The notes beneath the pieces were generated by a model that was given only the letters and a program-made list of their open reading frames with translations, did not search any database and was not told the DNA's origin. Positions 13,554-25,096 of a stretch of DNA of 64,000 nt are shown in pieces (position 1 is the stretch's first letter; the number at the start of each line of letters is the position of its first letter). This stretch comes from Pseudomonadales bacterium (GTDB lineage Bacteria; Pseudomonadota; Gammaproteobacteria; Pseudomonadales; Azotimanducaceae). The stretch covers positions 689,907 to 753,906 of the forward strand of contig OZ220466.1 in the NCBI GenBank assembly GCA_965116055.1. Reading direction: 5' to 3'. The position numbers were made by a program, and so were the translations under genes.

Positions 13554-13639
13554 GCCGAAGTGGTGGAACTGGTAGACACGCTGTCTTGAGGGGGCAGTGG
13601 GCTATGCCCGTGGAGGTTCAAATCCTCTCTTCGGCACCA
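13554..13639 (+). tRNA. leuU: tRNA-Leu (anticodon GAG), leuU-like
   Basis: The 86-nt sequence GCCGAAGTGGTGGAACTGGTAGACACGCTGTCTTGAGGGGGCAG...GGTTCAAATCCTCTCTTCGGCACCA is near-identical in architecture to E. coli leuU. It has a long variable arm, anticodon loop TTGAGGG and an encoded CCA. Confidence 0.92.
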
Positions 13640-13791: not shown

Positions 13792-14172
13792 TTGACCGTC
13801 AAGCTGATTCGCGCGACCAACAAACCGGGGTTTTACGGTGATGGCAACGCGCTTTTCTTGCGGGTCTTGCCGGGTGGCTCCAAACAATGGGTCCAGCGAC
13901 TCACCGTCCGGGGCAGGCGGCGAAACATTGGCCTCGGCGGCGTTCGTTGGGTGACGCTCGCCGAAGAGCGCGAGTCCGCCCATGAGAACCTACGCGTCAC
14001 CCGTCGCGGCGACCTGCCGGAAGCCAGACGCAAGCCGAAGATGTCGTTGTTCCGCGACGCGGCCCAGGGCAATTACGATTCCCTCTGTCCGAGATGGCGC
14101 ACCGAAAAGGTCGCCGCGAGCGGGATGCAGCAGCTCGAACGCTTGGGCGATCTGCCTGTGGGCCGCGGATGA
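13792..14172 (+). pseudogene. P4-type tyrosine integrase, N-terminal (arm-binding/DUF4102-like) fragment only
   Basis: KPGFYGDGNALFLRVLPGGSKQWVQRLTVRGRRRNIGLGGVRWVTLAEERE...RRGDLP matches the N-terminal consensus of P4-like integrases (KPG.Y.DG.GLyL.V...GsK.W..Ry...Gk...lgLG.yp.vsLaeAR). The ORF stops after 126 codons, so the core-binding and catalytic R-H-R-Y domains are missing. Confidence 0.72.
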
Positions 14173-16214
14173 TCGTACCGATTTTTCCACCCTTGGATGG
14201 GGAAACCGCTGAGCGATTCCATGCGTTGGCTACGAAACTCGCCTGCGCCCAGCGTACGCGCAACGCGAAGGAAATGAGTAGCGCATTGGAAGAAGAGACA
14301 GCTTGGTGCCGGTCGGCGAGGTGTAGCGAAAAGTATGTATTGGCCTATGAAGCGTGTGTCCGGGTTCTTACCGATCTCGCGCGGCTCGGTTGGCGCATCG
14401 TCGAACAAGGCTACGGGTTTGCCTTGGAGAAAGGCAAGGAACGGACGGGCCAGACGGCAGAAGAGATCGTGGCCAGCAAGGAGGCGCTGCGCCGTGAGTT
14501 GCAGCCCGTTGTCGATGAACAAAGGCGGCAACTCGCCGTAGTCGACTTCATCGCTCGGATGGAGGGAGAAGACAGCTACGGACGACGTAGCGTGCGGCTG
14601 CTCATGGCGGATGGAGCTGAGCTGGCGGCGAGGCTGGCGCCGGCGTGCACGCTGGAGGGTGAAGATCGGGTGGCATCGCTGAGCGATGCCATCAAGCCCT
14701 ATCTTCAGAAGGCGGACAAGAGTGTGGATCCGACGACAGGTCGTCGGCTTCGCGAGATCTGGCGTTATTTCCGGTATAGCTGGTCAATCCCCCAAGTGCC
14801 CACGCCGGGTCGGCAGTTGCTTTATCTCGTGAGGGATGCCGCGCACCCGGCACACCCGGTCATCGGCATCGCCGCACTCAACAATTGCCCACTCGAAATG
14901 GGCGAGCCGCGCGAGCGGTACATCGGCTGGCACTTCTCGGTGATCGTCGAACGCTTCACCGATGCCTTAGGGAGGGGCAAGGCGGCGCTAGAGGAGGAAG
15001 TCCGATGGCTCGAACGTCAGATCGAGACCTCACTCGCGGAAATCGACTGGACCAACCTCGTCACGGCGGCGGAAGTCGCCACTCCTGACGATGCAGTGAT
15101 CCGCCGGCTTGCGCGACGCGGGCAGGAATTCTCGAAGTTGCGGGAGACTTTGCTGAGGGCGGCTGCTGGGTCCTTTCAGGATCGGCTTGAGGCCGATCTC
15201 GCGGACGATGAAACGGCGCCCCCGGTGGATGACGACATCCTACAGCTGGAGGCGAAGGCATCGGTTGATTCACGCATGTACATGGCCCGCAAGCAACTCG
15301 TGGCGCGGAAGCGAGCCTCCGCATTGTTGCGTCTGCTGTCGGCCCGGCTCGTCATCGCCGAGCACCGGGACGAACTCACCGATCCCGAACGCGCGTCTGC
15401 AGCACTTGGCAAGGACAAGGTAAGAGGCGCGGTGAATATCGTGCTAGAGGCGCTGAAAGGGCGACGGGCAGGAGCCAATCTCCTTGAAATCACGACTTGC
15501 GGCGCGATCGCGCCCTACAATCGAATTCTCGGCGGCAAGCTCGTCGCCCTGCTGATGCTGAGCCCGCAGATCGGTGTTGACTATCGACGCCGTTATTCGG
15601 GCCCGTCAATCATCTCGTCACAAATGAAGAACCAGCCGGTGATCCGCGATAATGCGCTCGTCTATCTCGGCACGACCAGCCTCTACGTCTACGGATCTAG
15701 CCAATACAACCGGCTGCGTCTGCCGGCCGGGACGATCGCGCCGGACCAAGAGTGCATCCGTTACGATGAGATCGGTCAGACCTCCGGTTTCGGGACGATA
15801 CAGTTTTCGCCCGAAACGAGCCGTGCGATTAATGTCTTTCTAGCCCGTGAACACGGTTTCAAAGAGGTCAACAGCGTTTTCGGGGAAGGAACGAGTCCGA
15901 AGCTCCGCAAGGTGCAGATGGGGCTGCGCAGGCTGGGATTCGATCCAGGCAAGTTGATCCAGCATCGCCAACACCGCCTGATTTATGGCGCATCGCTGTT
16001 TCCGGCGGCGCGGGAGTGGTTGCAAGAACGCGTTGACGATCTGCCAGGCTATGTCGCAGCGCCGGATGGTTGCGGGGACGCCACCGAACGCATTGCCGCT
16101 TTTTGGAGGCGGCGCTGGCTCTCAAGCCGTCTTTGTCACCGGCCCAGCATGGTTGCTTTAGCGCGCGACGGTTTCGTACCCTTAGGAGAGACGGTGGGAA
16201 ATTCGGGCGGATGA
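14169..16214 (+). CDS. Island gene A: ~681-aa DUF4338/DruA-like protein with a long charged insert (function unknown)
   Basis: Two motif blocks are visible. The first is WRYFRYSWSIP..GRQLLYLVRDAAHPAHPVIGIAALNNCPLEMGEPRERYIGW. The second, ~230 aa later, is NLLEITTCGAIAPYNRILGGKLVALLMLSP...LVYLGTTSLYVYGSSQYNRL. From memory this pattern resembles the DUF4338 family (DruA of type I Druantia). The ORF is open from 14094. I prefer ATG 14169 because it forms an ATGA overlap with the integrase-stub stop. The stop overlaps the gene B start (ATGA). Confidence 0.55.
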   Translation: MIVPIFPPLDGETAERFHALATKLACAQRTRNAKEMSSALEEETAWCRSARCSEKYVLAYEACVRVLTDLARLGWRIVEQGYGFALEKGKERTGQTAEEIVASKEALRRELQPVVDEQRRQLAVVDFIARMEGEDSYGRRSVRLLMADGAELAARLAPACTLEGEDRVASLSDAIKPYLQKADKSVDPTTGRRLREIWRYFRYSWSIPQVPTPGRQLLYLVRDAAHPAHPVIGIAALNNCPLEMGEPRERYIGWHFSVIVERFTDALGRGKAALEEEVRWLERQIETSLAEIDWTNLVTAAEVATPDDAVIRRLARRGQEFSKLRETLLRAAAGSFQDRLEADLADDETAPPVDDDILQLEAKASVDSRMYMARKQLVARKRASALLRLLSARLVIAEHRDELTDPERASAALGKDKVRGAVNIVLEALKGRRAGANLLEITTCGAIAPYNRILGGKLVALLMLSPQIGVDYRRRYSGPSIISSQMKNQPVIRDNALVYLGTTSLYVYGSSQYNRLRLPAGTIAPDQECIRYDEIGQTSGFGTIQFSPETSRAINVFLAREHGFKEVNSVFGEGTSPKLRKVQMGLRRLGFDPGKLIQHRQHRLIYGASLFPAAREWLQERVDDLPGYVAAPDGCGDATERIAAFWRRRWLSSRLCHRPSMVALARDGFVPLGETVGNSGG

Positions 16215-17821
16215 GTGAGGGAGGACGCCGCGCGGAACCTACGATGGCCACAAACGACGGCGCCAGACTGTGGCGCATGCTTGCCGTGGCGGGCAGGGAA
16301 GCGATCGCCGAAGCGTTGACGGAGGAGGATTTCGAGCGGCTGCATGTTGTCGGTAGTATTGAGCGGTTCCTTGTCGACCAGGTGCAGATGGGCAGGAGTA
16401 TTGTAGTCACCGGAAATGCCGGGGACGGCAAGACGCACTTGCTGCGGCGCGTGAAGCCTAATCTCGAGAGCGCCGGCGCCGTTGTGGTCGAAGACGCGAC
16501 TGCCGAGATGATGGGTGATGATCCGCGTCCGGTTCTTGAGAAGTGGCGCAAGGCTGTGGAAGCCGGGCAGCCGTTTTGCCTGGCGGCGAATGAGTACCCG
16601 CTCTACCAGTTGAGATTGGCGGACGAATCTGCCCCGCATCTGGCGGAAGTTGACCGGCAATGCCGGCACCGCCTGGATTATGGAGAGGGCGAGCGGTCCG
16701 AGTGCAAGGGCGACACCGTGGTGATTGATCTCAGCCTCCGTAACCCGCTGAGTGCCGAGTTCTTCGGGGCTATGCTGGACAGGCTGCTGAACGACGAAGG
16801 GCTGAAGGCAGCACTGGCGAGCCCGAAAGAGTTGGCCGCCCGCCAAAATGTCGAGCTTCTTTCTCATCCACGGGTGCGGGCGCGGTTGCAGGTGCTGGCC
16901 GACCGGCTGGTGGCGTTGGGCCATCGTGCCACGGTGCGCGAGCTGTGGATCCTGTTGGCGCGAATGGTGTTCGGTCGGGGCGAGCGCGACACGTATCAAT
17001 GCGCAGACTGGTATTCGGAGGCGTTGTTCGCTCGGGACGACCGTTTCGAGCTGATGGATGCCCTGCGGGCGATGGATCCCGCCGATTGCAGCCACCCAAC
17101 ATGGGATGCTGCGCTGGATGCCCGCGAGTCCGCAGTGCGCGACGGGTGGGCGCTGCGCGCGCCAGTGCTGCCGCCGCATCCGACGCTTAAGTGGGAAGAT
17201 TTCGCTGCGCTCAAGCGCCGGTTCTATTTCGAGCACGACAAAGGCGAGGAGGCGTTCGAGTTGGACGACGCGGATGAGATTGAGTTCAGGCGGCACTTGG
17301 ACGGAAACGGTGCCTCAGGCCCGACGCTGGTTGCAAGATTGGTCGAATCCATCAACGCAGCCTACTGCCCTGTCCGCTTTGAGTTGCGCGATCAGCATTT
17401 GTATCTGTGGAACGGTCACCGCTTTCACGAGCAGCCGTCCCGGTCCTTCGTCGCCACCGAACGCGTGGCCACGGAGCAATTCGTCACGAAAGTGCCGCGC
17501 CTGCCGGAGCGGCTAGACGGGTGTTTCAAGTATCGGCCGGACCATATCTTGCTGACCGCACAAAAGCATCCGGGAACGCCGCGGCTGCGAATTGACTTCC
17601 CGCTCTGGCAGACGCTTCGCCGACTGGAGCGCGGCCTGCCGCGAAAGCTGATTCCGGAGCGCGACATTCATCGCCTGGACGCCTTCCTCCAGGAGCTCGG
17701 TGCGGGGCCGGTAGGGACTCGCGACAGCATCTGGTCTGTTCACATAGAAAACTTGGAACTGATCCAAGTGAATCTCAGCGCGGATAGGAGTCGCTTCGAG
17801 CGGGTGCGCCGCTATGGCTAA
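16211..17821 (+). CDS. Island gene B: 536-aa P-loop NTPase (family unassigned)
   Basis: Walker A IVVTGNAGDGKTHLLRRV, followed by an acidic hydrophobic strand AVVVEDATAE. The remaining ~430 aa have no motif I recognise. The ORF is open from 16070, but ATG 16211 gives an ATGA overlap with the gene A stop. Confidence 0.7.
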   Translation: MSEGGRRAEPTMATNDGARLWRMLAVAGREAIAEALTEEDFERLHVVGSIERFLVDQVQMGRSIVVTGNAGDGKTHLLRRVKPNLESAGAVVVEDATAEMMGDDPRPVLEKWRKAVEAGQPFCLAANEYPLYQLRLADESAPHLAEVDRQCRHRLDYGEGERSECKGDTVVIDLSLRNPLSAEFFGAMLDRLLNDEGLKAALASPKELAARQNVELLSHPRVRARLQVLADRLVALGHRATVRELWILLARMVFGRGERDTYQCADWYSEALFARDDRFELMDALRAMDPADCSHPTWDAALDARESAVRDGWALRAPVLPPHPTLKWEDFAALKRRFYFEHDKGEEAFELDDADEIEFRRHLDGNGASGPTLVARLVESINAAYCPVRFELRDQHLYLWNGHRFHEQPSRSFVATERVATEQFVTKVPRLPERLDGCFKYRPDHILLTAQKHPGTPRLRIDFPLWQTLRRLERGLPRKLIPERDIHRLDAFLQELGAGPVGTRDSIWSVHIENLELIQVNLSADRSRFERVRRYG

Positions 17822-19160
17822 CGCAACGCGAACGAAAGCGGACACGGCCGCCGTGCGCCGTGTACATGGTGCTATCCTCGGGTACCACCCTTACCGTATG
17901 AAGCCGGTTCACTTTGCCACGAGTTTCCTTCTGGCGTTGACTGGCCGATACCGCCGGCTCGAATACCTGAACAAAGCGTCGGTGCCGAAGACAGTACCTA
18001 GGGGCAGGCCGAACATCCAGAACGAGTACCTGGACGTTCGGCTTCATTCCCGGCTGGTCGATCTTGAGAAACTGGACCCGTCGGTTGACCTGGAGTCGTT
18101 CCGCATGCTTCGTGCGCACCTGAACGCAGCATACAACAACGACGGTTCAGCTCTCGCAGCCAGCTTTTCGCCCTATTCGACGTTCGGGGTGGACTACAGT
18201 GCCCCCTCGGCCCGATACATCTCGAACCGATCGAAGAACCATGGTTATTCGGGGAGCTTCGTCGTTTCGGTCTTGGAAGCCACCGCCGAGGGACGGGAAG
18301 CACTCGGAAGCATCAGGCGGCTGCTAGAGCTTCCGCCGCCGCCGCTGGATGCGTTCGGCGAGCCTCTGCTTGACGACGTGGACGAGGAATGGTGCGATCA
18401 GCACGACGAGTTCTACGGCACGATCGAGCCTGGAAGGCTGGCGCGGGTCGGGTCGGAAATGAAGGACTGCACGGTTGCGATAGGCTGCCTCGCCGCGAAT
18501 CTCGAGCGACTGCGATCCAGCTATTCGCTGCGCTACATGGTGCTAGGTCTCTGTTGTTGGCTGTTTGCCTACATGATGCGCCGGGGAAGCGATTCGCCGC
18601 CGCTGCTAATTGACGCGGTGCAGGGACGTAATCCCAGGATCCGCGCACAGAGCAGGGCCACCTATGCGCGGGCGCTGGACCTCTTTTCCTCCAGCTACGA
18701 CCGGGCTTTCTCGCTGGCCGGTAGCTCGGGGATCAAGGAAGACGACTGGGATGTGTTCGCCCGCTCGGAGAAAACCCGCCAAGAACTGGATGATCACTTT
18801 CGGGACTTGGGTGTGCGGATCGGCATCGTGCAGCCCCGCTCAACGGTCGCCAAGCACAAACATGTTGAACTGCAAGCGGACACGCTTCGGGTGCTCTCGT
18901 ACAGCCTGCTTAAAGAGGGCCAAGTGCTGACTCTGCCGACATTCGCAGACCAACTCAGAAGAGTCTGGTCAATTCTGGTCGGTGCCCACGCTTCGGACGG
19001 CGACGTTCTGCGCGCAAACCGCTTCGGTCCCCTTGATCACGATGAGGATCTGCGATCGAACGCGGCTGCGTTCCGATCGCTGTTGGTGAGGCTAGGCTTG
19101 GCGGTAGAGCCGTCCGACGGGCTGACACTGGTCGCGATCAACGCGGAAGAGGCGATCTGA
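17814..19160 (+). CDS. Island gene C: 448-aa hypothetical protein, no recognisable motif
   Basis: Long high-GC ORF with GC3-rich codons. It overlaps gene B by 8 nt (ATGGCTAA) and ends 1 nt before gene D. No P-loop, nuclease or TM motifs were seen. Confidence 0.65.
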   Translation: MANATRTKADTAAVRRVHGAILGYHPYRMKPVHFATSFLLALTGRYRRLEYLNKASVPKTVPRGRPNIQNEYLDVRLHSRLVDLEKLDPSVDLESFRMLRAHLNAAYNNDGSALAASFSPYSTFGVDYSAPSARYISNRSKNHGYSGSFVVSVLEATAEGREALGSIRRLLELPPPPLDAFGEPLLDDVDEEWCDQHDEFYGTIEPGRLARVGSEMKDCTVAIGCLAANLERLRSSYSLRYMVLGLCCWLFAYMMRRGSDSPPLLIDAVQGRNPRIRAQSRATYARALDLFSSSYDRAFSLAGSSGIKEDDWDVFARSEKTRQELDDHFRDLGVRIGIVQPRSTVAKHKHVELQADTLRVLSYSLLKEGQVLTLPTFADQLRRVWSILVGAHASDGDVLRANRFGPLDHDEDLRSNAAAFRSLLVRLGLAVEPSDGLTLVAINAEEAI

Positions 19161-19161
19161 G

Positions 19162-22100
19162 ATGGCGCGCACGGCAGCATCGCTGGTGAGCGAGGCACTG
19201 GCGTCTTGGATTCTCTCGCGGCTGGGCCATGAGAACGATTTCGCGCGCGAGGGACTTCCAGAGTTCGACATTCCGTGCCTGATGCAGGCACTTTCGGAGG
19301 GAGGCCTGCCTGCCGGAAGATTCTCGCTGGCGCTGGTCGGATTCGAGACGACAGAAGAGGAGGTGCGGGCGCTCGCGGACGCGAATGGTCTCAGCGCGCT
19401 TGCCGGGGTGACACTTGATCTCCATGTCGCCACCGAGTGGCGCAATGATCGCAACCGGCATCCGAGGATCGTCGCACTGGCGCTCGGCTACAATCCGGGC
19501 GTGCACGGCTTGCGCTTCTTCTCCCGCGCCTCTTCGGGAGAACTCGCAGCCATTCTGCTGGGCTGGGCGGAGAACGCATCCGAGTTCACGACCACCCCAC
19601 AGCACCAAGAGTTGCTGAAGACGCTGCGTCTGGCGCGGGGGCTGGGGTCGGTTCGTTCCCTGGAAGGCGTTGCGGCCTTTCTCGCCGAATGGAGCAAGGG
19701 AGGTGACGGGGCGATTGGCAGGCCGCGCGATGTTCTTCCCGCTCTCGGACTGCTCCGCGATCCGCGATTGTTTGAGGCAGACGACCTGGCCAAGCGTCTC
19801 GAACACAATCTGCGTGTAGGGGAGAGCGTCACCATCATGTCACCAGGAGACATCCGGCAGCGGCGCAAGCGCGCGACGCACTACCGCGATGCGGAGACGG
19901 CTGAGCTGGTGACCCAAGCGCTGGACCGACTGGAAGCCCATCGGCGCGGCGATCCCGACGCAGGGCTGACGTTGGAGGATGCGGATCGCCTCATGAGCCT
20001 TCCCGTTGACCCACCACCGGCCTCCTGCTCGGAGACGGACGAGCCAGACATTTCCGACGAACACGACGACGCCGAGGAAAAGGACGAGCCCAGACTGCAC
20101 GAGATGGCGGTGGATGCACTACTGGAAGGTCGCGATGAAGATCTCGCGGCCATCGGTGAGCTCCTTGAAGCCGCGTGGGAAGAGTTTCGGCGGAACGGGG
20201 ATCTACTGGTGTCCAGTCAGGAAACCAGCCAGGGAGTGGCTCGGCTCGAAGAGCACGTCGACCCCAAAGTCATTGACTGGGTTGCCGCCTTCTGCTGCGA
20301 GGATCGCTATGGCGGGCTCATTGAGACCGACATTGATGACCTGTCGCAGGCGCTTGCCCGCTATACCGAGTTCGACCCCCTATTCCTGGACCCAGGCGCG
20401 ATCTGGAAGCATGACGGGGTCTCCTACTCCATTGAGGAGCTGCTCAAAGGGTGGGATAAAGTGGATGCTGTCGCCGAAGCCCGCCCACGCCTGATCGCAG
20501 CGATGTGGCGCGATTTCGTCGCCGCGCGCACCTCGCTTGCGAAGGGAGGGATGACGAGTCCGCTTCTCATCCATCCTCGCGAGTGGCTTGATACCCATCC
20601 CGAAACACGAGATTTCTGCGCGCGCTACCTTGCGGTGGCGACCGAACTCTACAAGGCGATCCAGCAGAATTATCGGGCAGTCTGGGACCAGTCGCCCGAG
20701 TGGGCGCAGGCGACGCTGGACGCGATTCTGTCGCTTGACCTAGTACAAGTTCGGATTGCGGGTCTTGACGGCGGATTCAGCGCCAAGGCGGTGATGTTGC
20801 CGCTGCATCCGCTGCATCTGTGGCGATACCAGCGTTTCGGAGAAATTCTCCGCGATCTCTCGCGTACGGGACCGATGTCCGAAGGCGACAAAAAGGTCGT
20901 CATTGAGGAGTTGCGCCGTCCGGAACACTTTGTCAGCGTCATAAGAACCGGGGCCACGCCGGAAGGACGGGGGCTCAACCAGTTGCTTCCCGTCGCTAAC
21001 CAGATTCGCGGCCTCGCGACGTTCGAGAACCTGCACAATGCGATCAGCAGCGCCGATGGTATGGAGACGCTGGTTCTCGCGCTTAATCGCTTCGTGATGC
21101 TTTACCCCAACCATCCGCGGCCGCTCCGGTTGACGCTGGTCAATCCACCCGAACCAGCTCGGCTACTGGAACGACTGACGAAATTCCTGAATGAGCGGCA
21201 GAACATCGGCGGACGTCTTCCCGCCCTCAAAGTGACAGTCGTCGCCACGGCCGGGCACCGGGATCGGCTGACGGCGATGTCGGTACTCGAAAGCAAGGCG
21301 CAGGACCTGGTTTACGAGCAAGTCTCCGCCGGCCGACTTGATCTGCGCGTGGAACGCGATTCCTTTGAGAATCTCGACCGGCTGGTAACGGAGGTGCTGT
21401 CGAAGCGTCCGCAGCACTTGGTGGCGATCTTCGACGAGTCCGCGGTCTCGGTCAAGCGCAGGCGGGTCGAGCGCCTACTGCCCATGAGTCCGTTCTGCGT
21501 GCGCAACGAGATCGTGATTGATCGGATGCTGGGCGATATCAGCCTGAGTCCACATCCGGGTGAACCGCCGTTCTCGGATTTCGTGATGATGATCCACGAG
21601 TTCGAGCAGGAGCAGCGGGACAGCACGATGGTCGCCTCGGCGGATGCTGACCGGCTACGCTCGACGATTGATGACCTGCTGATCGGAGAGCGAGCGCCGG
21701 CGCGCTGGGTCCTGCTCGCGGATCGCGCTCTGCCGCCGGAAAGCGGCATGACGTCCATCCGCCTCTTGCAGCGTAGGGAGGGACATCGCCAGGTGCTGCT
21801 GAGCGCAGCTGACTATGGACGGTTGTCGACATTAATGCGTGCCGCGTTCAGTAACTGTAATCTAACGATCACGAATGAGGGGTTGGGTCACGTTCTGCGG
21901 CAGGGCGTGAACTTGGTCGGTGCCGGTTTGCTTGACATGATCAAGAAGCAGTCCGGATTGCCAGACAAATCGTTGGTGCTCGGGTTCGTGGGCATGCTGC
22001 TCGCCGCTCGACATGTGCGAAGCGAGGATCCGCATGCACTGGTCGCCTCGGTTGACGGGTCGGTCGCACGCCTCTGGCTTAAGCTGAGCCCTGTGGGTGA

Positions 22101-23937
22101 CCGCAGGCGCTGCGATCTGATTGCGCTTCGTCGAGGGGCGAACGAGTCATTTCGTATCACCTGTATTGAAGTCAAGACAACTGGGGAATCAATCCTTTCT
22201 GACGAGACAGCATTGATTGGTTATGCGGCTGACCAGATCGAGCGTACGGCGGCGGTACTGTCGAGCGCGGTTGGCGAGTCGGGGCCGTTCGCGGCACCGC
22301 GCTTGGAAATGTTGAAAGAGGTCTTGGTGAGGGCGGCATCAAGCCGCTGGGGCGAGGAGCAGGACGATGTCGCTCAGCGCAAGATCTGGGGTCCGCTGCT
22401 CAAGGACCTGCTCGGGGACGGTCCCGAACCGTCGGTCGTGCGGGTGGACGGCGAGATCGTCATCGTGAAACTGCGCTCAACGGAGCCGGCCCGGGTGAGG
22501 CCACTCAGGGGGAGAGAGATCCCGCTTTCAGTCAGGACAATAAACGAGAAGGAGGCGGAGTTCCTGTTCGACAATGATTTCGTAACCGAGGCTCCGCCGG
22601 AAGGCGCGGATTCGGACGGCGATGCTTCAGATGCAGAACAGAGGGGCGGGCATAATTCGCCCAGTGAAGAGGCGCCGCTACCGGCTGAACGTGCTTCTAA
22701 ACCGGAATCGGGATTGCGTGATGGTTACGGGACCAGGGATACGGCGACTGAAACAGGCGGGGATGAGCCATCGTTGATCGCTGCCGATGCGGCGGCCGGG
22801 AGAAAACGTCGGGACGGGACGGAGGTGCCGACGACCTCGGCGGTCGTCGACCGCGCGAACGAAGCAGTTGTCGAAGGGGAGGGGGTGAGCGCGGGTTCGG
22901 TCTGGCCGCCGCGCGTGAACGCGCTGGGGATGGTCGGACAATACGAAATCGCCCAAGAACTGGACAATCAAGCGCGCAAGGCAAGGGGCTGGGGCGAGAG
23001 GTTCCTGGACAAGTTGTTCGTCGGGCCCGCCGGCGTTGGCAAAACGACGCTCGCCCGTCGGATCGCTGAACGACTGCTTCAGCTAGAACCGATCGTGTTC
23101 AACGGCGCAGATCTTCGCCGGCCGGACATGATCGTGGAGCGACTGATGGAGGCCGGCAAGGCACCGGGCACCGGCGGACGCAGCGTTGAGGTCACAGTCG
23201 CCCCCTGCCTAATCTTCATAGACGAGGTGCATGCGGTTGCAAGCCAGGTTTCGACAGTTCTACTCAGCGCGTTAGACGAGCGGCGTAGCACCACGATCGG
23301 AAATGTGGTTTACAGTTTTGAGGATGTCGTGTTCCTGCTGGCGACCACGGATCCGGGTAGGCTCTCGGAGGCGTTCCAGAGCCGGCCGGACAAGACGATC
23401 CTGCGGTCTTACACGCTCGAGGAGGTGGCCGGGATTGTCTGGCTCCACTCCGTGGAGACGCTTGAGCAAACGGGCCTCAGCCGCGAGACCTGTATTGAGA
23501 TTGCGGCGCGCATGCAGTGCAGCCCGCGGCCGAGTGTCAACATCCTCAAGCCACTGGTGGCGAGTTTCTACGGCACAGCAGAGTACGGGCTGGGACGCGT
23601 GCCGACCAAGGAAGAAGTCGCGGACCTGATGAACACGGGTGCCGTGGCGAGGTGGTTCGAAGATACACAGGGCATTGACCGAAACGGCCTTACCTCGGTG
23701 CATGTGGAATATCTCAAGCTGCTACAGATCCGCGGTACCTCGGCGGAGGAAGAGATTCGCCGGGCGCTCGGAATCTCGAACCGGGCCGACTTCGTGATCG
23801 TATCGGAGTATCTGACCCGTCTCGACCTGATCCGCGTCGGACCTGGCGGTCGAGGTCTGACCTCCGATGGCAGGCGTTATCTCAACGCGTCGTCTCCGCC
23901 TGACTTCCGCGACAGGATCTCACGTCGCATTGCCTGA
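19162..23937 (+). CDS. Island gene D: 1591-aa multidomain protein (large unknown N-region, PD-(D/E)xK-like motif, acidic disordered linker, complete RuvB-like AAA+ ATPase with C-terminal winged helix)
   Basis: The nuclease-like motif is CDLIALRRGANESFRITCIEVKTT (D985...E1003-x-K1005, nt 22114-22176). The RuvB-like part begins at PPRVNALGMVGQYEIAQEL. It has Walker A FVGPAGVGKTTLARRIAE (nt 23023-23046), Walker B CLIFIDEVHAV (D1354 E1355) and sensor-1 FLLATTDPGRLSEAFQSRPD. The C-terminal block GIDRNGLTSVHVEYLKLL...ALGISNRADFVIVSEYLTRLDLIRVGPGGRGLTSDGRRYL mirrors the RuvB C-domain consensus (GLD..D..yL..l...G....iA.alg......e.v.EPyLi..g.i.RTpRGR..T). Confidence 0.8.
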   Translation: MARTAASLVSEALASWILSRLGHENDFAREGLPEFDIPCLMQALSEGGLPAGRFSLALVGFETTEEEVRALADANGLSALAGVTLDLHVATEWRNDRNRHPRIVALALGYNPGVHGLRFFSRASSGELAAILLGWAENASEFTTTPQHQELLKTLRLARGLGSVRSLEGVAAFLAEWSKGGDGAIGRPRDVLPALGLLRDPRLFEADDLAKRLEHNLRVGESVTIMSPGDIRQRRKRATHYRDAETAELVTQALDRLEAHRRGDPDAGLTLEDADRLMSLPVDPPPASCSETDEPDISDEHDDAEEKDEPRLHEMAVDALLEGRDEDLAAIGELLEAAWEEFRRNGDLLVSSQETSQGVARLEEHVDPKVIDWVAAFCCEDRYGGLIETDIDDLSQALARYTEFDPLFLDPGAIWKHDGVSYSIEELLKGWDKVDAVAEARPRLIAAMWRDFVAARTSLAKGGMTSPLLIHPREWLDTHPETRDFCARYLAVATELYKAIQQNYRAVWDQSPEWAQATLDAILSLDLVQVRIAGLDGGFSAKAVMLPLHPLHLWRYQRFGEILRDLSRTGPMSEGDKKVVIEELRRPEHFVSVIRTGATPEGRGLNQLLPVANQIRGLATFENLHNAISSADGMETLVLALNRFVMLYPNHPRPLRLTLVNPPEPARLLERLTKFLNERQNIGGRLPALKVTVVATAGHRDRLTAMSVLESKAQDLVYEQVSAGRLDLRVERDSFENLDRLVTEVLSKRPQHLVAIFDESAVSVKRRRVERLLPMSPFCVRNEIVIDRMLGDISLSPHPGEPPFSDFVMMIHEFEQEQRDSTMVASADADRLRSTIDDLLIGERAPARWVLLADRALPPESGMTSIRLLQRREGHRQVLLSAADYGRLSTLMRAAFSNCNLTITNEGLGHVLRQGVNLVGAGLLDMIKKQSGLPDKSLVLGFVGMLLAARHVRSEDPHALVASVDGSVARLWLKLSPVGDRRRCDLIALRRGANESFRITCIEVKTTGESILSDETALIGYAADQIERTAAVLSSAVGESGPFAAPRLEMLKEVLVRAASSRWGEEQDDVAQRKIWGPLLKDLLGDGPEPSVVRVDGEIVIVKLRSTEPARVRPLRGREIPLSVRTINEKEAEFLFDNDFVTEAPPEGADSDGDASDAEQRGGHNSPSEEAPLPAERASKPESGLRDGYGTRDTATETGGDEPSLIAADAAAGRKRRDGTEVPTTSAVVDRANEAVVEGEGVSAGSVWPPRVNALGMVGQYEIAQELDNQARKARGWGERFLDKLFVGPAGVGKTTLARRIAERLLQLEPIVFNGADLRRPDMIVERLMEAGKAPGTGGRSVEVTVAPCLIFIDEVHAVASQVSTVLLSALDERRSTTIGNVVYSFEDVVFLLATTDPGRLSEAFQSRPDKTILRSYTLEEVAGIVWLHSVETLEQTGLSRETCIEIAARMQCSPRPSVNILKPLVASFYGTAEYGLGRVPTKEEVADLMNTGAVARWFEDTQGIDRNGLTSVHVEYLKLLQIRGTSAEEEIRRALGISNRADFVIVSEYLTRLDLIRVGPGGRGLTSDGRRYLNASSPPDFRDRISRRIA

Positions 23938-24114
23938 AGCGTTTTGGCTCGGCGGGATTTGTTGGCGTAAGGGAGGCGACGAAGAGGGTGTAAATCTCGT
24001 ATGGCGATGACGGTTTGGGTCTGACATCCGGGATTCATGCGGCGCGTCTGGTAAGGTACAACACTCTCGGCATCGCGCTACCGTGACAAAATCCAGCTTT
24101 GGACCCACAGATTG

Positions 24115-25010
24115 TCACCAAACCCCGTAATCGGGAACCCGAGAAGGCTCTTGTGTTGTTATATGTGTATCTTGTCCGACATGCTCGACAATAAAGTTCG
24201 TTTCGATGGTGTTGTCGGCAATAAGCTGATCTTCAAGGTCGTTCGACGGCGGAAGCGTTTCGAAATGTCTGGCTAGGTCTTCCTCACTAAACCCGCGCTT
24301 CAGGATGCCCTTTTGAACTTCTCGGCCTCTTGATCGACATCCACGATCATGTGCCAGGGATTTCAAAGGTCTCCACCAATGCCGGATAGATCCCGGCATT
24401 ACCGCTCTGCTTGAAGTCGACAACGGCGACGCCGTGTGTATCAAGAGGCCAGCCTAGATCTTTGCCGAGCGCATGTACAAAGAGGTATTCGGTAACGCCT
24501 TCGACAAGAAGCTAGCGGCGGGCGAAGAAGATTTCTCCGCGGACACGCCGTCCATGAAAACCGAGTTCTTCTTCATCCTCGGTCGTCGGGAGAATGCGGC
24601 CTTGGTGACGAAGGCGGCGGATCGCTTCGGCGCGTTCATGACGGTCGGGATCGCGCTGATAGCACTCGAAAGGCGATCAGACATGGTCATGTCGAACCAG
24701 ATCGTACCGCCACGCTCTTGGTCGGAATGCCTTGCAAGAAGATTTGGTCGCCTGATGCCGCGATGAACGCATCATGACTGTCGTTCCAAGGCAGCTCGGA
24801 AACGATATACGGCGGTAGTAAGGAAAATTCGGCACAGCCACCCGCAACCGAACCAGCCTGATGTCGCGCAACGGCACATTCTGGACAAAATACGGGGAGT
24901 AGGTCGTCATGACTTTCTGACCGGATAACTCCTGCACACGCTCCCACAATTTGTGCGCCGCTTGCGGGTGGAGATGAACCGCCGGTTCCTTTATAGCGAA
25001 AAAAAGAAAG
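24115..25010 (-). pseudogene. OLD-family (ABC-type ATPase + Toprim) nuclease remnant, 5'-truncated and frameshifted
   Basis: Four frame segments read on the minus strand. (1) FAIKEPAVHLHPQAAHKLWERVQELSGQKVMTTYSPYFV is the Walker-B/D-loop/H-loop region of OLD/AAA_15-type ATPases (consensus IEEPE.HLHP....TTHSP). (2) LLVEGVTEYLFVHALGKDLGWPLDTHGVAVVDFKQSGN carries the Toprim Glu. (3) IPWHMIVDVDQEAEKF carries the Toprim DxD. (4) The C-terminal tail. In-frame stops and frameshifts separate the segments. The Walker A half is absent. Confidence 0.72.
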
Positions 25011-25096
25011 CGGTTAGGTTTCCATATTGGAGCGCGTGAGATACGTGCACTTCCTCTACGAGGCAGACTAACGGTAAAACTTATAATTTAGGCGCT

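Follow-up and report, generated by a model that had tools for sequence, protein, structure and literature searches.

Type I Druantia is named for DruA, a protein of the DUF4338 family (Pfam PF14236; DruA1 in PADLOC), yet our literature search found no paper that tests the function of DruA or gives it a tested role. Two further kinds of described system come close to the locus analyzed here. One is the SspFGH module of SspABCD-SspFGH (Wang et al., mBio 2021, PMC8092258). The other consists of the DUF4338-DndF fusions of Rakesh, Aravind & Krishnan (NAR 2024, PMC10853773), where DUF4338 is described as an acetyltransferase domain of the GCN5-like (GNAT) type joined to a P-loop protein of the DndF/SspF type, with G and H coming next. 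That DndF-fusion system has been proposed to operate on its own, uncoupled from phosphorothioate modification. Here, we analyze a DUF4338 gene (hereafter gene A) and its three downstream partners (genes F, G and H) in a 64,000-nucleotide stretch of the genome of a Pseudomonadales bacterium (contig OZ220466.1, positions 689,907 to 753,906; hereafter the window). The four genes form a horizontally acquired, self-contained SspFGH/DndFGH-like anti-phage cassette on a tRNA-Leu island, which they fill on one strand with overlapping or abutting starts and stops:

14169-16214, + strand: gene A, long-form DruA/DUF4338 protein of 681 residues (Pfam DruA, PADLOC DruA1 and AlphaFold2).
16211-17821, + strand: gene F, SspF/DndF-like P-loop protein of 536 residues with the Walker A motif GNAGDGKTH (PADLOC SspF and DndF).
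17814-19160, + strand: gene G, SspG-family protein of 448 residues (through its homologues).
19162-23937, + strand: gene H, SspH/DndH-family large subunit of 1591 residues with a swapped motor (through its homologues).

The window shares with SspFGH the order and sizes of the three genes and the Walker A motif of F. F matches SspF, homologues of G and H match SspG and SspH, and a conserved nuclease-like motif occurs together with a C-terminal motor in H. On the other hand, the window's genome lacks sspBCD, an extra DruA gene is present, the motor of H is RuvB-like instead of FtsK-like, and G and H are too divergent for a direct match to the models. The DUF4338-DndF fusions show the same combination of a DUF4338 protein with a P-loop protein, G and H, and relatives of the window's genes are such fusions of ~1200 residues, but A and F of the window are separate, overlapping genes. 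The accessible part of PMC10853773 gives HerA/FtsK for all DndH proteins with no mention of RuvB, whereas H of the window carries a RuvB-like AAA+ ATPase; the N-terminal domain and helical insert of the long form are likewise not described in that part. With its separate A and F genes and its RuvB-like motor, the cassette represents a variant of the published kind.

Gene A truly belongs to the long form of the DruA (DUF4338) family, for which models already exist, and is a new member of it. Its reading frame is intact, and the ATG at 14169 agrees with the "MIVP..." start of the homologues. The Pfam profile PF14236 matches A with 92.6 bits (curated cut-off 27) in two stretches, and the genome search, after conversion, places profile positions 60-119 and 137-296 at approximately residues 193-255 and 444-619. 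The 675-position PADLOC model of DruA1 (PDLC00001) matches over positions 43-642 (E = 4e-126, 420 bits); the 407-position model PDLC00002 matches A in pieces only. Both halves of DUF4338 and the invariant motifs are present, and A and the short forms have the motifs WSxP..GR, RD, GAxxPY..LGGKL, TTS..SSxYNR and GEG/GNGP in common. A preliminary description of this DNA had assigned A to DUF4338/DruA by its motifs and proposed a check with the Pfam model, which was run and strongly bears the assignment out. Its statement that the rest of Druantia is missing also holds, in that no DruB-E adjoins A and the three downstream genes give no DruB-E match.

Four PADLOC SspF models match gene F (best E = 4.6e-11), as does DndF (5.6e-4). 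Gene G gave no meaningful match in direct model searches, in phmmer and profile searches against PDB or in Pfam at E ≤ 5. PADLOC SspG matches 22 of 43 G homologues (best 2.6e-17), and a hidden Markov model (HMM) built solely from the distant homologues detects the window's G at 1.5e-36, in a match that spans almost the entire protein. Direct searches with H returned nothing beyond the AAA+ domain, and three pieces of H gave noise in Pfam at E ≤ 5. Fourteen of 25 H homologues match SspH (best 2.5e-77) and eight match DndH (best 3e-75), and an HMM of distant H proteins covers residues 3-1206 of the window's H at 1.8e-146, stopping before the motor. Because of these matches of F and of the homologues of G and H, we regard the cassette as a module of the SspFGH/DndFGH type that is headed by a DruA gene and has a swapped motor. 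The partners of A, which had been described as entirely different, are indeed not DruB-E, but they are relatives of the known SspF, SspG and SspH/DndH proteins. Two parts of H are of particular relevance:

22114-22176, + strand: motif D985 ... E1003-V-K1005 of H (by conservation; no nuclease family model matched).
22930-23892, + strand: C-terminal RuvB-like AAA+ ATPase and winged helix of H, residues 1257-1577 (Pfam, NCBIfam and PDB).

The D985...E1003-V-K1005 motif and the Walker A motif of H are conserved at ≥90% among 36 homologues, and the former may represent a PD-(D/E)xK-type nuclease motif, judging from its residues. The C-terminus of H is matched by Pfam AAA (1.1e-15), RuvB_N and RuvB_C, by NCBIfam RuvB (5.3e-16), and by RuvB and FtsH in PDB. 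Among 25 H relatives, 19 match the PADLOC HerA-type ATPase model (mad8) and 11 match Pfam FtsK_SpoIIIE; a RuvB-like AAA+ ATPase is found in six, all from the window's clade. In the H proteins of this clade, the RuvB-like AAA+ motor replaces the FtsK/HerA pump.

Relatives of A were sought exhaustively with HMMER among 1.84 billion cluster representatives, and 1358 were found (430 at E ≤ 1e-30). Nearly all full-length entries among the top 150 representatives are ~620-760 or ~1150-1300 residues long, 34 of the 150 falling in the range of 1150-1303 residues, and the C-terminal half of the relative P0122 carries the Walker A motif and the next strand of F. The gene neighborhoods, whose survey the preliminary description had suggested, were compared over 87 loci, namely 80 metagenome loci fetched with the long-form profile and seven others. 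A scan of genome contigs with the single protein had yielded just three loci, and the census therefore draws on metagenome contigs; since these were chosen as the best long-form DruA matches, it is not an unbiased sample. Genes were labelled by single-sequence phmmer, because the HMMs of A and F cross-match via the fusion proteins. In 53 of the 87 loci, A and F are fused in one gene, after which G and H come wherever the contig is long enough, and 15, including that of the window, have the split arrangement A|F|G|H. In FGH-type cassettes, DruA and the proposed sensor subunit are usually covalently joined. At a single locus (L080, 413-11378), the order is F-G-H-A, with the DruA gene last.

In the maximum-likelihood tree, A of the window belongs to a nine-row clade of split forms with a Shimodaira-Hasegawa-like approximate likelihood ratio test (SH-aLRT) value of 100. 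This clade joins five fused forms with weaker support (SH-aLRT 88), and the larger clade enclosing it consists mostly of fused forms (SH-aLRT 99). Since the split clade is nested within fused clades, the split A|F of the window's lineage would fit a secondary fission of a fused gene. The ATGA overlap between the stop codon of A and the start codon of F also fits such a fission.

We generated an AlphaFold2 model of A from an alignment of 54 relatives (33-86% identity), which has a predicted local distance difference test score (pLDDT) of 88.8 and a predicted template modelling score (pTM) of 0.86. Four regions are distinguished:

14169-14693, + strand: N-terminal domain, residues 1-175, helices with a β-hairpin at 76-87 (AlphaFold2 secondary structure and conservation).
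14694-14930, + strand: first half of the core, residues 176-254, with strands 177-181, 216-223 and 231-239 (Pfam profile 60-119 and AlphaFold2).
14931-15476, + strand: helical insert, residues 255-436, 182 residues rich in Ala, Leu, Arg and Glu (alignment and AlphaFold2).
15477-16211, + strand: second half of the core and C-terminal helices, residues 437-681 (Pfam profile 137-296, AlphaFold2 and invariant columns).

Asp69 and Trp75 are invariant in the N-terminal domain, which is possibly winged-helix-like. The first half of the core has the motif WRYFRxxWSxP...PGR...RD...W. In the second half, the predicted strands are 438-446, 499-503, 533-538 and 603-609, and the motifs PYNxxLGGKL, TTSLY..GSSQYNR, FGEGxSP and WxxRW follow strand 438-446. 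The insert is located between strands 231-239 and 438-446, and the high pTM and the strand order indicate that, in the model, both Pfam blocks contribute strands to one α/β core. Residues 246-437 are predicted to be entirely helical, with long helices at 256-289, 308-333, 368-398 and 416-437. Pfam at E ≤ 5 found nothing above noise on either the N-terminal domain or the insert.

This architecture agrees in most respects with the preliminary description, whose quoted motifs lie at residues 200-254 (N-block) and 437-516 (C-block). The two separated blocks are real, but the spacer comprises 182 residues instead of ~230. Its reported richness in Glu, Arg, Ala and Leu was borne out (Ala 16.5%, Leu 12.6%, Arg 12.1%, Glu 9.3% and Asp 8.2%; charged residues 34% versus 27% in the whole protein), and the helical prediction is of high confidence. 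The region preceding the core, given there as ~200 residues, is ~175 residues long, and the suggested structure prediction puts the two blocks in one core with the insert between two strands. The insert is, however, no oddity of this copy. In the alignment with the ~400-residue short forms, which have neither the insert nor the large N-terminal domain, the insertion site is clean, lying after R(D/E)xxIGW and before (L/M)(E/D)I..CGA, and the short forms have ~20 residues there versus 182 in A. All 26 aligned long forms retain the insert at identities down to 29%, with Pro306, Leu377, Lys381 and Arg382 conserved inside it. The helical insert is a normal trait of the whole long-form subfamily, Druantia-linked copies included. 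Because it is kept across the long forms and is already built into PDLC00001, it does not single out gene A.

We put the probability at roughly 0.6 that, as a whole, the following reading is correct: long-form DruA is the first subunit of the A-F-G-H cassette, outside Druantia; A is attached to F; H is the effector; and A is an accessory enzyme or regulator. Since most relatives have A and F in a single polypeptide, A would act while attached to F, for which sensing of nucleotides or invader molecules has been proposed (PMC10853773). Once this sensor is engaged, A may act on a protein or nucleic-acid target, either as an accessory enzyme that depends on acyl-CoA or as a regulator derived from an enzyme, and would then license or back up DNA attack by H. 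The effector function of H, with its nuclease-like motif and ATP-driven motor (RuvB-like here), is suggested by the motif and the family matches. The cassette would run without phosphorothioate marking. A related suggestion, that the DUF4338 domain backs up restriction as a co-effector, has been published (PMC10853773). A four-gene cassette without modification genes offers a compact setting for testing the role of DruA.

Several observations weigh against this reading. G and H of the window reach the Ssp/Dnd models only through their homologues, and H lacks the FtsK/HerA motor of the characterized DndH and SspH. SspFGH and DndFGH are toxic to an unmodified host without phosphorothioate marks (PMC8092258), yet the genome carrying this cassette has no modification genes. 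As to an acyltransferase role of A, a Foldseek search of PDB with its full-length model gave only noise (best E = 0.38), and neither this model nor a short-form model found a match at E ≤ 1e-3. When A was compared with PDB sequences by phmmer and by profile, no meaningful match emerged. In hhalign, the core of DruA scored a probability of <1% against a profile of 29 GNAT paralogues, whether the insert was kept or removed, and for this reason we do not claim GNAT membership from our own data.

The core fold of A is nevertheless probably GNAT-like, as far as predicted structures can suggest. The model of a short-form DruA of 397 residues (pLDDT 86, pTM 0.85) has among its top 50 PDB matches almost exclusively acetyltransferases, mostly of the GNAT family, although the best E-value is just 0.044; the fold matches include Coxiella CBU0801 (probability 0.91, target-based template modelling score TMt 0.60) and GCN5 (probability 0.80-0.85). 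The GNAT-like fold raised in the preliminary description is thus weakly supported, by matches that are mostly GNATs and of which none is significant. In GNATs, the loop that binds the pyrophosphate of CoA lies at the site corresponding to that after strand 438-446 of A. By this analogy, the invariant PYNxxLGGKL of A may occupy the position of the pyrophosphate loop. A and the GNATs share the order of core strands and helices and a Gly-rich loop after the fourth strand, in addition to the list of fold matches; A differs in the lack of a significant fold or profile score, in the 180-residue insertion between core strands and in its large extra domains.

The weakness of the GNAT similarity would suit a different role for A, that of an adaptor or sensor derived from a GNAT but catalytically dead. 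Its N-terminal domain and its helical arm would recognize a DNA structure or phage protein and thereby activate F/H, and no acyl group would be transferred. In A, the canonical Q/RxxGxG/A motif has only an approximate counterpart, R-I-L-G-G-K after strand 438-446, and the conserved arm (Lys381-Arg382 and Leu377) and the N-terminal domain suggest interaction surfaces. The fusion of A to the proposed sensor subunit (PMC10853773) would also suit an adaptor. However, dense invariant polar motifs (TTS, SSxYNR, FGEG and PY..LGGK) are kept across long and short forms, which is typical of an active site. We consider a dead adaptor unlikely.

In the BFVD database, the full-length model of A matches uncharacterized giant-virus proteins far better than any PDB entry. 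These matches include Faunusvirus A0A3G4ZXG3 (469 residues, E = 1.6e-8), Yasminevirus A0A5K0UAJ3 (1260 residues, E = 1.2e-6) and Dasosvirus A0A3G4ZRA1 (1157 residues), of which the latter two are approximately the size of the A-F fusions. They could reflect real transfer or contaminated metagenomic giant-virus bins.

The host genome (one contig, 97% complete) contains no DndC/SspD-type 3′-phosphoadenosine 5′-phosphosulfate (PAPS) reductase, no DndD and no sspBCD. Its sole PAPS-reductase matches are open frames of 307 and 246 residues, sizes fitting cysD and cysH. Ssp/Dnd modification genes are also missing from the flanks of the related cassettes sampled. Together with the damage that SspFGH and DndFGH do to the unmodified DNA of a host without the modification genes (PMC8092258), these absences would be accounted for if A were a self-marking acyltransferase that modifies host DNA, nucleotides or the F-G-H complex in place of SspBCD/DndABCDE phosphorothioation; by extension, DruA would license in the same way in type I Druantia. 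The first-gene position of A, its many invariant Arg, Lys and Trp residues and the GNAT-mediated DNA modification proposed for BREX-related systems (PMC12839542) are in line with this idea. If this is true, DruA would gain its first biochemical function, and prokaryotic immunity a self mark of a new kind, at the epigenetic or protein level. Nevertheless, in most relatives A is covalently fused to F, an unusual arrangement for a modification enzyme that scans freely, and the same long-form A serves Druantia-I-like loci. Moreover, DndFGH is reported to be commonly decoupled from modification without any GNAT (PMC10853773). Self-marking by A seems improbable to us, and an A that licenses or backs up H is preferred.

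Long-form DruA is not confined to FGH-type cassettes. At 13 loci, a ~530-residue GHKL-type ATPase precedes long-form A, and a ~1000-residue protein without a PADLOC match follows it. The GHKL type was read from the N-terminal sequence, and the N-terminus matches PADLOC MzaB. The ~530-residue protein was also considered as a homologue of F, a candidate that was rejected owing to its GHKL-type N-terminus and an hhalign probability of 0.2%. Four of the 13 loci (L127, L107, L115 and L124) contain a match to the L127 DruE1 query, and the first three also match DruD1; direct PADLOC matches in L127 and L107 are DruE1 at E = 0 and DruD1 at 1e-114. L126 (2347-12353) has an SNF2 helicase, and L046 has an SNF2 helicase and a 2077-residue DruE-family match. 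The arrangement at L127 is as follows:

L127, 8332-21595: Druantia-I-like locus with GHKL ATPase, long-form DruA, DruD1 and DruE1.

Type I Druantia and the window thus have in common the DruA family and, at L127, L107 and L115, the insert-bearing long form beside DruD1/DruE1, whereas A of the window has no adjoining DruB, DruC, DruD or DruE. The GHKL/Druantia-linked copies, with their GHKL ATPase in front, form their own 13-row cluster in the tree (SH-aLRT 93). One long-form DruA module is therefore wired into two effector families, the Ssp/Dnd FGH type and the DruE-type helicases, in keeping with the preliminary suggestion of a portable module shared between systems; the Ssp/Dnd half of that idea is already published (PMC10853773).

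The genome of the window also encodes a DruE-family helicase, its only one. It belongs to a cluster of three co-directional genes ~495 kb upstream (G000:C1:195041-206777; L015 7042-18778), which encode a 1750-residue DruE/YprA-family helicase (PADLOC DruE3, 2.5e-92), a 954-residue SNF2 helicase (DpdE 1.5e-207, DrmD 2e-86) and a 1208-residue N6-methyltransferase (DrmMI 8.8e-71). With this helicase, its SNF2 and methyltransferase neighbors and the long-form DruA that accompanies DruD1/DruE1 in other organisms, A might be imagined as a true Druantia component acting in trans. The distance and the helicase's own partners speak against such a function, and A-F-G-H transfers as a unit without any DruE. 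Furthermore, the tree places A of the window within its large FGH-linked portion and not in the 13-row GHKL/Druantia cluster, and the GHKL ATPase that always precedes the Druantia-linked copies is missing here. We give almost no credence to a function in trans; the distant cluster is DISARM/Druantia-like and unrelated to the DruA island.

A short-form DruA was observed in yet another setting. At L045 (13622-18981; named Sulfuritortus calidifontis from the identical protein P0270), a short form of 397 residues (PADLOC PDLC00002, 4.4e-80) directly follows a TniQ-like gene and is followed by a 404-residue protein of no assigned family and a 614-residue HerA-like ATPase, without DruB-E. This locus is a further DruA context outside Druantia and possibly represents Tn7-like cargo.

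The G+C content is 61-62% at 14001-24000 of the window versus ~52% on either side, and it climbs from ~0.51 to 0.60-0.65 directly 3′ of a tRNA gene; the island is flanked by tpiA-secG on one side and tRNA-Met/rimP-nusA on the other. Two features mark the left end:

13554-13639, + strand: tRNA-Leu(GAG), left border of the island (ARAGORN).
13792-14172, + strand: remnant open reading frame of 126 codons, resembling by eye the N-terminus of a P4-type integrase (sequence reading, no family scan).

The TGA of the remnant frame overlaps the ATG of gene A (ATGA), and no homologue of this frame was found upstream of A at related loci. At the far border, direct repeats of the att type that match the 3′ end of tRNA-Leu were sought and not found, the sole resemblance there being the T-arm of tRNA-Met. 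The segment between the stop codon of H and tRNA-Met (23938-25096) contains just short open reading frames on both strands at a G+C content of 0.50-0.58 and looks like the decayed right end of the island.

Nucleotide homology to a locus of an Alphaproteobacteria metagenome-assembled genome (L002) extends over 14168-23927 at 85%, covering exactly the four genes with no shared flanks, and the relatives at 56-86% identity in A carry the same four genes. Against L002, the ratio of nonsynonymous to synonymous substitution rates (dN/dS) is 0.16-0.18 for each of the four genes at a synonymous rate (dS) of 0.43-0.56, and it is 0.16 for gene A; A, F, G and H are under the same level of purifying selection. 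A search of 18 further species in the host genus did not recover the long-form gene, and one of these species gave a distant, partial DruA-family match. The truncated integrase-like frame, the missing att repeat and the right edge without long open reading frames would also be expected if the cassette were inert cargo of a decaying island, with A having no current function. This is very improbable in view of the four intact, translationally coupled reading frames and their dN/dS values, and we retain the reading of A as the first subunit of a working cassette.

The related cassettes have as neighbors a Lamassu component (LmuB), type I restriction-modification genes and PDC defence-candidate systems. 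Two of the cassettes are on plasmids, each with an FtsK-type H. The first is from the archaeon Haloplanus sp. GDY1 (L163, 8977-18806), where a divergently transcribed gene for a 1808-residue DEAD/DEAH helicase lies upstream, and the second is from the Bacteroidota member Hymenobacter canadensis (L162, 9229-19740), where an IS3 element interrupts the cassette. No Druantia genes follow DruA in either of them. RefSeq labels their A proteins "Druantia anti-phage system protein DruA" and their H proteins "DNA translocase FtsK", an example of an annotation trap in which pipelines name such genes after Druantia where Druantia is missing.

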